This document shows, one piece after another, positions 62,300 through 63,776 of a stretch of DNA of 64,000 nucleotides. Made by a program: the position numbers and the translations under genes. The notes below the pieces were generated by a model that saw only the letters and a program-made list of their open reading frames with translations, was not told the DNA's origin and did no database searches. The stretch is from Escherichia coli (GTDB taxonomy: Bacteria; Pseudomonadota; Gammaproteobacteria; Enterobacterales; Enterobacteriaceae). Within the stretch, counting starts at the first letter, position 1; each line of letters opens with the position of its first letter. The stretch lies in the NCBI RefSeq assembly GCF_017348835.2, contig NZ_CP071375.1; one strand, given 5' to 3'.

Positions 62300-63060
62300 G
62301 TTGGAGTCATTACCTCCTCCCGAACTCAAAGCTATCATACAGATAATTACTGGTTAACCCTATATAGGGCATTTTAAAGTGTTGTGATCTTACCCAGCAA
62401 TAGTGGACACGCGGCTAAGTGAGTAAACTCTCAGTCAGAGGTGATTCACAAGACAAAACAGTTTCAACCAGTAAAAAAACGTAAACACCATTCGCATGAA
62501 TTTCGTAGTTAAGATCTGAAGCTTGCAGAATGCATCGGTGTTACTGCCGGAGTCCGTGAACTTAGTCTGCATGAATCACCACAGCTTTACATCTGTCGCA
62601 GTAAACAGCAAAATCAGCAAACTTACTTAATTATATCGAGTGCGATTACAATCGCTGGCGATGGTACAGTTGGTGTGGCGGTCTCAGTCCGGAACAATTT
62701 GAAAATCAGAATCTCACTTAAAACGGCATCCATTTTACAAAAGATGGCCGTCTGTGTATTTGTAATGAATACCTTCTACATGTTTAGAGTGCATAATCCA
62801 CGACAAGGCGATATCCTAAAAATTAGCTAGCAGGCAACTTTGATGGCATAGATAATGTTTTTAGTAAAAAAGAGTTGACTGAATATAATACAGCCTCTTC
62901 CTACATAAGAAGGAATGTGCTCACAAAAAAAAACCATTAGTCTGCTTCCTGTTCTTACAATAATCAGTATTATGTATTTTATTTATATAGCAAAATATGC
63001 TTGTTACACCTGTCATAATTAGGCATGGTAAAATTATTGACTGAACCCTGGGGGAGAAAG

Positions 63061-63318
63061 ATGCACAGTGATTATTATAATATGGTTTTTGGTGAAAAAT
63101 TGGCCAATATTTTATATGAAGCTAACTCTCAATTTTTTTACGAGAGAAATGTCATAGAAGAGGCAGTCAACGCTTTATTCTGTGAGCGTGAAATAATAAA
63201 CAACAAGAACATAATAAAGAAGCTGATGTTCTTTTTGTCAGATGTTAATCACACCAAGAAAGATGTTGTTCAGAGCGCACTTAATATTATCATTGACATT
63301 ACATCAGGTGATATTTGA
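63061..63318 (+). CDS. Small hypothetical protein (85 aa from MHSDYYNMVF…), AT-rich
   Basis: ATG at 63061 preceded by gggggagaaag Shine-Dalgarno; no recognisable motif; lies in an AT-rich accessory stretch. Confidence 0.35.
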   Translation: MHSDYYNMVFGEKLANILYEANSQFFYERNVIEEAVNALFCEREIINNKNIIKKLMFFLSDVNHTKKDVVQSALNIIIDITSGDI

Positions 63319-63637
63319 GATTTTACATAAAAGATAATCTCTCAAGGAGTCTTATCTGAAAACGAAATATATAGTCCCTCTCGTTTTGTAATATCGATTG
63401 GCTTTGTTGAATCGGTTACGTACCCCGGAGCCGGTCATATTTTCAGGTAATACACACGCTTTCAGACATTTCGGCTTTCGTCATTTTGGTATCATGGGCA
63501 TAGCTTCTGCTACCTGACCATCATAATCACGCAGCTTCAGTGAAGCAGTGACCACCTGTTTAACCCGGTGTATCGTTATGATCTTATCCAGCAATTGAAC
63601 CGCCCCGGGTTTCCTGGAGAGTGTTTTATCTGTGAAC

Positions 63638-63776
63638 TCAGGCTGCCAGATCATCGTTTCCGATGGAAGCATAATAAGCTTTTTCTGCTTCTGCCGGTGG
63701 AATATGGCCCTGCCTTTCCAGCAATCGTCGATTGTTATACCAGTCCACCCACGTGAGTGTGGTCAGCTCATCATAC
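63638..63776 (-). pseudogene. C-terminal remnant of an integrase-core (rve) type transposase
   Basis: Minus-strand translation …TWVDWYNNRRLLERQGHIPPAEAEKAYYASIGNDDLAA(stop) resembles the conserved C-terminal end of IS3-family/rve transposases; no upstream part of the gene is present. Confidence 0.4.

Follow-up and report, generated by a model that had tools for sequence, protein, structure and literature searches.

The closest described relative of the gene reported here is ariR (ymgB, b1166) of Escherichia coli K-12, the third gene of ycgZ-ymgA-ariR-ymgC. Its product belongs to the BluR/BluF-YmgB-Rcs-RprA-csgD pathway, in which YmgB/AriR lowers curli production through RprA and raises that of colanic acid (PMC3509220). 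Activation of Rcs by YmgB requires neither RcsF nor the periplasmic domain of RcsC, and it is blocked by the T411A substitution in RcsD (PMC11451591). Helix 3 of YmgB also binds SpoT; the R74G substitution abolishes this binding, with Rcs activation being kept (PMC10704370). The surroundings of the gene have a K-12 counterpart of their own, the KpLE2/leuX island, with which the present locus has in common the leuX attachment, the fecABCDE-fecR-fecI-ykiE genes, and an identical copy of IS1F. The two arrangements part company after IS1F, which in K-12 is directly followed by yjhU, whereas here it is followed by a debris field, an ariR-like gene, a phytase-like esterase gene, and IS66.

The stretch of DNA analyzed (64,000 nucleotides, referred to as the window) is E. 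coli chromosome and carries, after leuX, a genomic island with fecABCDE-fecR-fecI aboard (Table 1). Compared with E. coli strain WS0115A, it is 98 to 99% identical over positions 7550-56744 and 99.7% identical over 56293-64000. Elsewhere in the window, in what is the pepA/holC region by comparison with WS0115A, a 96-bp unit is repeated in tandem 4.1 times (95% matches) at 40948-41339; three of these repeat units are hits to Rfam naRNA4 (REP/BIME-type), and the copy number appears to be different from that in WS0115A. A strong match to Rfam Ysr276 (Yersinia sRNA 276; 175 bits versus a gathering score of 100) on the plus strand at 42104-42298 lies, by position, within or antisense to pepA.

Table 1. 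Features of the leuX island discussed in the text (positions are those of the window; ".", no strand assigned)
Feature	Coordinates	Strand	Details
leuX (tRNA-Leu)	48313-48394		Followed by genomic island
IS1F, 768 bp	61547-62314	+	Left boundary of debris stretch
Omptin (OmpT-like) internal fragment, plasmid-type	62315-62384	-	Residues 194-215 of 317
IS3-like element, left part	62385-62622	+	Left inverted repeat TGATCTTACCCAGCAATAGTGGACACGCGG... plus first ~170 nt of orfA (insE)
IS3-like element, right part	62623-62738	+	Last ~32 codons of orfB (insF) plus inner right inverted repeat
70 bp between truncated IS3-like end and ariR-like module	62739-62808	.	Matches same mosaic in other E. coli only
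AT-rich conserved non-coding leader/promoter region of ariR-like gene	62809-63060	+	GC 0.30-0.38
YmgB/AriR-family gene, 85 aa, intact	63061-63318	+	ATG 63061, TGA 63316-63318
3' flank of ariR-like module	63319-63399	.	Common with plasmid allele up to 63383
IS903-group (IS5 family) relic	63400-63578	-	Terminal repeat GGCTTTGTTGAAT plus last ~45 transposase codons, frameshifted
Second IS3-like left-repeat stub, 17 bp	63579-63595	+	TGATCTTATCCAGCAAT; direct repeat with 62381-62401
IS1203/IS629 (IS3 family) right-terminal 174 bp	63596-63769	-	Inverted repeat TGAACCGCCCCGGG... plus last ~43 orfB codons

A previous, sequence-only reading of this region had proposed decayed mobile DNA to the right of a fec-proximal IS1 and recommended a comparison with the corresponding K-12 sequence. 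The proposal proved right. The insertion sequence is IS1F, with decayed mobile DNA beside it, and the segment from 61300 to 62314 is 99.9% identical to the fecI-IS1F region of K-12, the similarity stopping exactly at 62314. IS1F has inverted repeats of 23 nt (61547-61569 and 62292-62314), an intact insA, and an insB interrupted by a nonsense codon (TGG to TAG at 62087-62089) that is also present in the K-12 copy; RefSeq records an IS1 family transposase pseudogene here and notes the internal stop. The space between fecI and IS1F contains ykiE, a RefSeq-annotated, 22-codon small protein gene (61453-61521, plus strand) that is conserved in K-12.

To determine which arrangement is ancestral, that of K-12 or that of the window, we looked for the 9-bp target duplication of IS1. 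None was found around IS1F, be it in the window (61538-61546 and 62315-62323) or in K-12, which indicates that at least one of the two right flanks was replaced by an IS1-associated rearrangement. In O104:H4 strain 2009EL-2050 (NC_018650.1, 4642-4650), the equivalent of window positions 61547-62384 is without IS1F and without the 70-bp omptin fragment, and the IS3-like left repeat is joined directly to GGTAATG, the initial 7 bp of the IS1 left repeat. The O104:H4 junction was considered as an "empty site" for IS1F and rejected, because the 7 bp of the IS1 left repeat that it has kept point to a secondary deletion.

The DNA to the right of IS1F is very probably an insertion sequence graveyard within the fec-carrying leuX island, with one intact cargo gene that encodes a putative AriR-like connector. 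From left to right, the mosaic consists of IS1F, a 70-bp omptin piece, the IS3-like element, about 575 bp of AT-rich cargo, the end of an IS903-group element, a 17-bp IS3-like stub, and 174 bp of IS1203/IS629, an order that serial insertions and adjacent deletions have produced. The joints are nested, the outer end of one insertion sequence abutting the interior of the previous one, such that the IS903 relic is cut by the stub and the stub by the IS1203 end; such nesting is a hallmark of insertions that came one after another, with neighboring DNA then deleted. The four insertion sequence relics are all missing an intact transposase gene and at least one terminus and are thus inert scars, which is why no long ORF is left. 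Judging from these sequence comparisons, the stretch is for the most part debris of four insertion sequences and one protease gene, and an ordinary identity can be given to nearly every base. All parts of the region belong to known families and are already annotated in RefSeq, which independently gives the same pseudogenes in the mosaic.

The sole intact gene of the stretch codes for a cytoplasmic protein of 85 aa and four helices, which belongs to the YmgB/AriR family. The sequence-only reading had rightly noted a small ORF with a strong ribosome-binding site, the Shine-Dalgarno sequence GGGGGAG (63050-63056) being situated 4 nt 5' of the start codon. It had also regarded the gene as an orphan, a status that does not survive the match of the protein to Pfam PF10798 (YmgB; 27.3 bits, above the curated gathering threshold of 22.3, over profile positions 2-59 of 59) and its RefSeq name, "biofilm development regulator YmgB/AriR family protein" (WP_000555341.1). 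By BLASTP, the protein is 30% identical to K-12 AriR (88 aa) over 83 residues (E = 3e-8), the two being collinear from end to end; no similarity to YmgA was detected, and scans of the protein with NCBIfam, PHROGs, and PADLOC returned noise only. A sequence search with the 85-aa protein also found PDB entry 2OXL, the YmgB crystal fold, which its predicted structure matches. AriR was in the model's alignment and 2OXL predates AlphaFold training, and the fold match is therefore not fully independent. A search of the literature for this AriR paralogue by its accession or by an ariR-like or ymgB-like name found no papers.

The gene differs from its K-12 counterpart in its setting. It is solitary between insertion sequence relics, without the ycgZ-ymgA-ariR-ymgC partners and without adjacent BluR/BluF genes, and unlike the K-12 AriR locus, it resides in foreign DNA of about 30% GC, in the leuX island and on IncF plasmids. 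The subfamily is narrow, as an exhaustive HMMER search of 1.84 billion representative proteins recovered only two distinct relatives, designated P0078 (46% identity) and P0082 (36% identity), both with a Pfam YmgB match. P0078 is encoded on IncF plasmids in an LPS-modification-type cluster, together with genes for a polysaccharide deacetylase, an SMR protein, VirK/DUF535, and a glycosyltransferase. The gene for P0082 is chromosomal, in a bluF/bluR-like locus with EAL (BluF-like) and MerR (BluR-like) genes, pmrD, and icd. pmrD, another two-component connector gene, is found close to both relatives. Apart from a probable contaminant contig, a peptide-pattern scan of species-representative genomes identified only AriR-type genes of 28 to 31% identity in Citrobacter and unclassified Enterobacteriaceae, and an exact-pattern scan of species-representative genomes for the source of the AT-rich module yielded nothing. 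A gene 100% identical to the ariR-like gene is present on a 509-bp contig (NZ_JAHZMP010000127.1, 0.87x coverage) of Terrisporobacter mayombei DSM 6539, probably reflecting E. coli contamination of this Clostridia assembly.

By homology to K-12 AriR, the 85-aa protein would most likely be a small helical dimer. It may act as a connector by protein-protein contact, turning on the Rcs phosphorelay via the cytoplasmic part of RcsC, in which case colanic acid would be expected to go up, curli to go down, and acid resistance to change. The second activity of AriR, i.e., binding to SpoT with a consequent rise in ppGpp, would be less likely for this protein because the residue aligned with R74 of AriR is Gln (VVQS here versus VIRK in AriR); P0078 and P0082, like AriR, have Arg at this position. 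On this comparison, an Rcs-type connector role appears more likely than SpoT control. Several observations may nevertheless be held against the connector reading, namely that identity to AriR is just 30%, that the operon partners and regulators are missing, that R74 is not conserved, and that the consensus scan detected no sigma-70 promoter upstream of the gene within the leader.

The mosaic is widespread. The segment 62739-63442 is present at at least 99% identity in 1,768 records, with 1,768 of 5,426 complete E. coli genomes giving a match, and the carriers (about 31% to about a third of complete E. coli genomes) include O104:H4, the B strain T7 Express, and HB101; the mosaic is almost always located beside fec. 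The ariR-like module is found in addition on 49 plasmids of Escherichia, Salmonella, and Shigella, among them IncF plasmids on which it has other mobile-element flanks. In plasmid pMS15047A (NZ_CP082101.1, 2486-5381), a block composed of IS1, the omptin fragment, the deleted IS3, and the ariR-like gene is about 94% identical to that of the window and has moved as one unit.

The limits of the module could be drawn with the help of a diverged allele on pSA53IncF, which is 88% identical at the DNA level over a conserved core of about 575 bp (62809-63383), does not have the 62739-62808 segment, and sits between a broken Tn3-family transposase gene and an IS1 fragment. About 6% of the coding nucleotides differ between the two ORFs, which are 88% identical in amino acid sequence and show no indel relative to each other, whereas three indels (of 28, 2, and 1 bp) separate the alleles in the non-coding leader upstream. 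This distribution of indels, together with a dN/dS of about 0.5, hints, weakly, at coding constraint. Some annotations include a 97-aa upstream extension, which loses the frame in the diverged allele; this supports ATG 63061 as the start codon.

The alternative to be weighed most seriously is that the ariR-like ORF is a silent passenger, which would be intact because the mosaic is young and clonal and which would be either silenced by H-NS, as AT-rich foreign DNA usually is, or devoid of a selectable function. With mosaic identity at or above 99% in almost all carriers, conservation inside the mosaic says little about selection, and the dN/dS between the two alleles (about 0.5; 0.52), calculated from no more than 15 substitutions, does not fall significantly below 1. 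The isolation of the gene amid debris is also in keeping with a passenger, as are the rare frameshifted or truncated variants of the ORF (P0036, P0040-P0059) and the consensus promoter scan, which detected no plus-strand site upstream of the gene within the leader (6 promoter-like sites versus 5.5 expected). On the other hand, the diverged allele keeps the ORF, its length, and the strong Shine-Dalgarno sequence while its flanking non-coding DNA has taken up indels; the exact 85-aa protein is found on at least 1,000 contigs; and the module has been captured repeatedly by plasmids in differing insertion sequence contexts. On balance, we regard a silent passenger as unlikely, if worth keeping in mind. 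Also on the unlikely side, and to be taken as speculative, is the far-reaching proposition that the AriR paralogue is an expressed connector with changed partner specificity (R74 to Gln), made mobile by the leuX/fec island and IncF plasmids, which would rewire Rcs-dependent or other stress/biofilm signaling in roughly one E. coli strain in three, B strains and O104:H4 among them.

The sequence-only reading had drawn attention to some 700 bp without an ORF of 60 codons or more, and the six-frame scan agrees: the interval 62300-63024 (725 bp) has no such ORF, and nowhere in the 64-kb window is there a longer gap of this kind (the runner-up measures 431 bp). Since 61% of composition-matched shuffles of 62315-63024 are likewise without an ORF of at least 60 codons, the sequence behaves like non-coding or decayed DNA. 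GC content drops from about 0.55 in fecI/IS1 to 0.30-0.32 at 62800-63400. The earlier proposal that the gap could be the relic of larger genes was correct in that it contains the remains of an omptin gene and of an IS3-like element; equally, the explanation that had been named as speaking against an unusual region, a known gene disrupted by frameshifts, applies to 62315-62738, and known genes, truncated and broken by frameshifts, make up about 60% of the ORF-free stretch. The omptin fragment, the internally deleted IS3-like element, the IS903-group fragment, and the second IS3 end had gone unmentioned.

The omptin fragment (translation, QHFKMPYIGLTSNYLYDSFEFG), which derives from an outer-membrane protease gene, is 95.8% identical in nucleotide sequence to the omptin CDS of pMTY18780-2 over 72 bp and, by tblastn, 91% identical over 22 aa. 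The episomal OmpT gene of ColV-type plasmids adjoins mig-14 and SDR (hlyF-type) genes; here, only codons 194-215 of 317 are left, IS1F having cut the gene at one end of the fragment and the IS3-like element at the other. Simple splitting of an omptin gene by the IS3-like element was considered and rejected, as there is no omptin sequence beyond the IS3-like relic.

That the ORF-free stretch could harbor a non-coding RNA had also been suggested, and either a functional small RNA or a structured leader with a cis-regulatory role might seem in line with two features of the leader: about 250 bp upstream of the ariR-like gene are as well conserved between alleles as the coding part, and a perfect TATAAT (62884-62889), kept in both alleles and a candidate -10 box, would give rise to a long 5' leader. 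We nonetheless consider such an RNA very improbable. Rfam 15 gave no match at E ≤ 1 in 61200-64000, and a search of the whole window at gathering thresholds gave none in the region; the minimum free energies of the leader were no better than those of shuffled sequences on either strand (z = +1.15 and +0.75); and 62315-62738 is entirely explained by gene and insertion sequence relics. Downstream of the ariR-like gene (63319-63399), no terminator-like site was detected, and folding (z-score, -0.86) did not surpass that of shuffled sequences.

The IS3-like element shares homology at both ends with IS3A of K-12 (insE/insF). Its left part carries a left inverted repeat that is perfect and matches IS3A nt 1-235 at 88% identity; on the right, 62627-62738 corresponds to IS3A nt 1131-1242 (of 1255) at 84% identity. 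Unlike IS3A, it has lost its interior (about 895 bp), the start and frame of orfA, and the right tip, the outermost ~13 bp of the right repeat being gone. The orfA start codon is changed from ATG to AAG, with frameshifts and stop codons following, and the RefSeq pseudogene at 62419-62623 ("frameshifted; internal stop") covers this ORF; the 32 residues that remain of the orfB end match Pfam rve_2 (E = 3.9e-7) and also NCBIfam transpos_IS3. Functional IS3-family elements have two TG-starting terminal repeats and intact orfA and orfB with a programmed frameshift, a combination that 62385-62738 does not present, and by its sequence, the element is a non-functional relic. The perfect left repeat, the partly kept right one, and the removed interior might bring to mind a still mobilizable, MITE-like non-autonomous element, but this is scarcely credible given that the right repeat is unrecognizable over its outermost ~13 bp (3/13 matches by eye), that the element occurs at one place only (mosaic segments having a median of 1 place per genome, always in the same context), that no ~354-bp IS3-like element with 3-bp target duplications was seen at unrelated loci, and that orfA is full of mutations, consistent with long decay.

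The graveyard reading also accounts for the DNA on the other side of the ariR-like gene. Over 63423-63575, the IS903-group relic and IS903B copies share about 76% identity, and RefSeq annotates an IS5/IS1182 pseudogene at 63443-63573. The relic has the terminal repeat and the transposase C terminus in common with IS903/IS903B, but just ~180 bp of it remain, frameshifted and cut by the IS3-like stub; a complete element has 18-bp repeats (GGCTTTGTTGAATAAATC) and a transposase of ~307-322 aa, compared with the 13 bp of one repeat left here. An intact IS903-like element of 1,056 bp, bounded by the same terminal repeat as the relic, lies at the equivalent place in pMS15047A, where its end is 14 bp away from the site at which the window has its IS903 relic. 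The second IS3-like stub, which measures 35 bp in O104:H4, has undergone in the window an 18-bp deletion of AATGGACACGCGGCTAAG.

The last component had been recognized in the sequence-only reading as the C-terminal remnant of a transposase with no upstream body, and so it turned out; it is the end of an IS1203/IS629 element. Annotated copies of "IS3-like element IS1203 family" are 94 to 98% identical to 63596-63769 over exactly that span. The minus-strand translation of 63638-63790 reads ...DELTTLTWVDWYNNRRLLERQGHIPPAEAEKAYYASIGNDDLAA up to a stop codon, of which 63638-63769 encodes ...WVDWYNNRRLLERQGHIPPAEAEKAYYASIGNDDLAA and the stop, and the remnant matches positions 344-369 of the 369-position NCBIfam profile transpos_IS3. 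IS629 is about 1,310 bp in full length. The terminal repeat and the end of orfB are shared with IS1203/IS629, but a full-length element has both ends as well as orfA and orfB, whereas here the terminal 174 bp alone match.

Overall, the region shows how repeated insertion of insertion sequences and adjacent deletion leave gene-free scars in genomic islands, and how an apparent orphan can turn out to belong, in diverged form, to a small family of regulators that is already known. If the AriR paralogue is expressed and feeds into Rcs, SpoT, or some other partner, it would have a modest bearing on differences between strains in biofilm and stress behavior.
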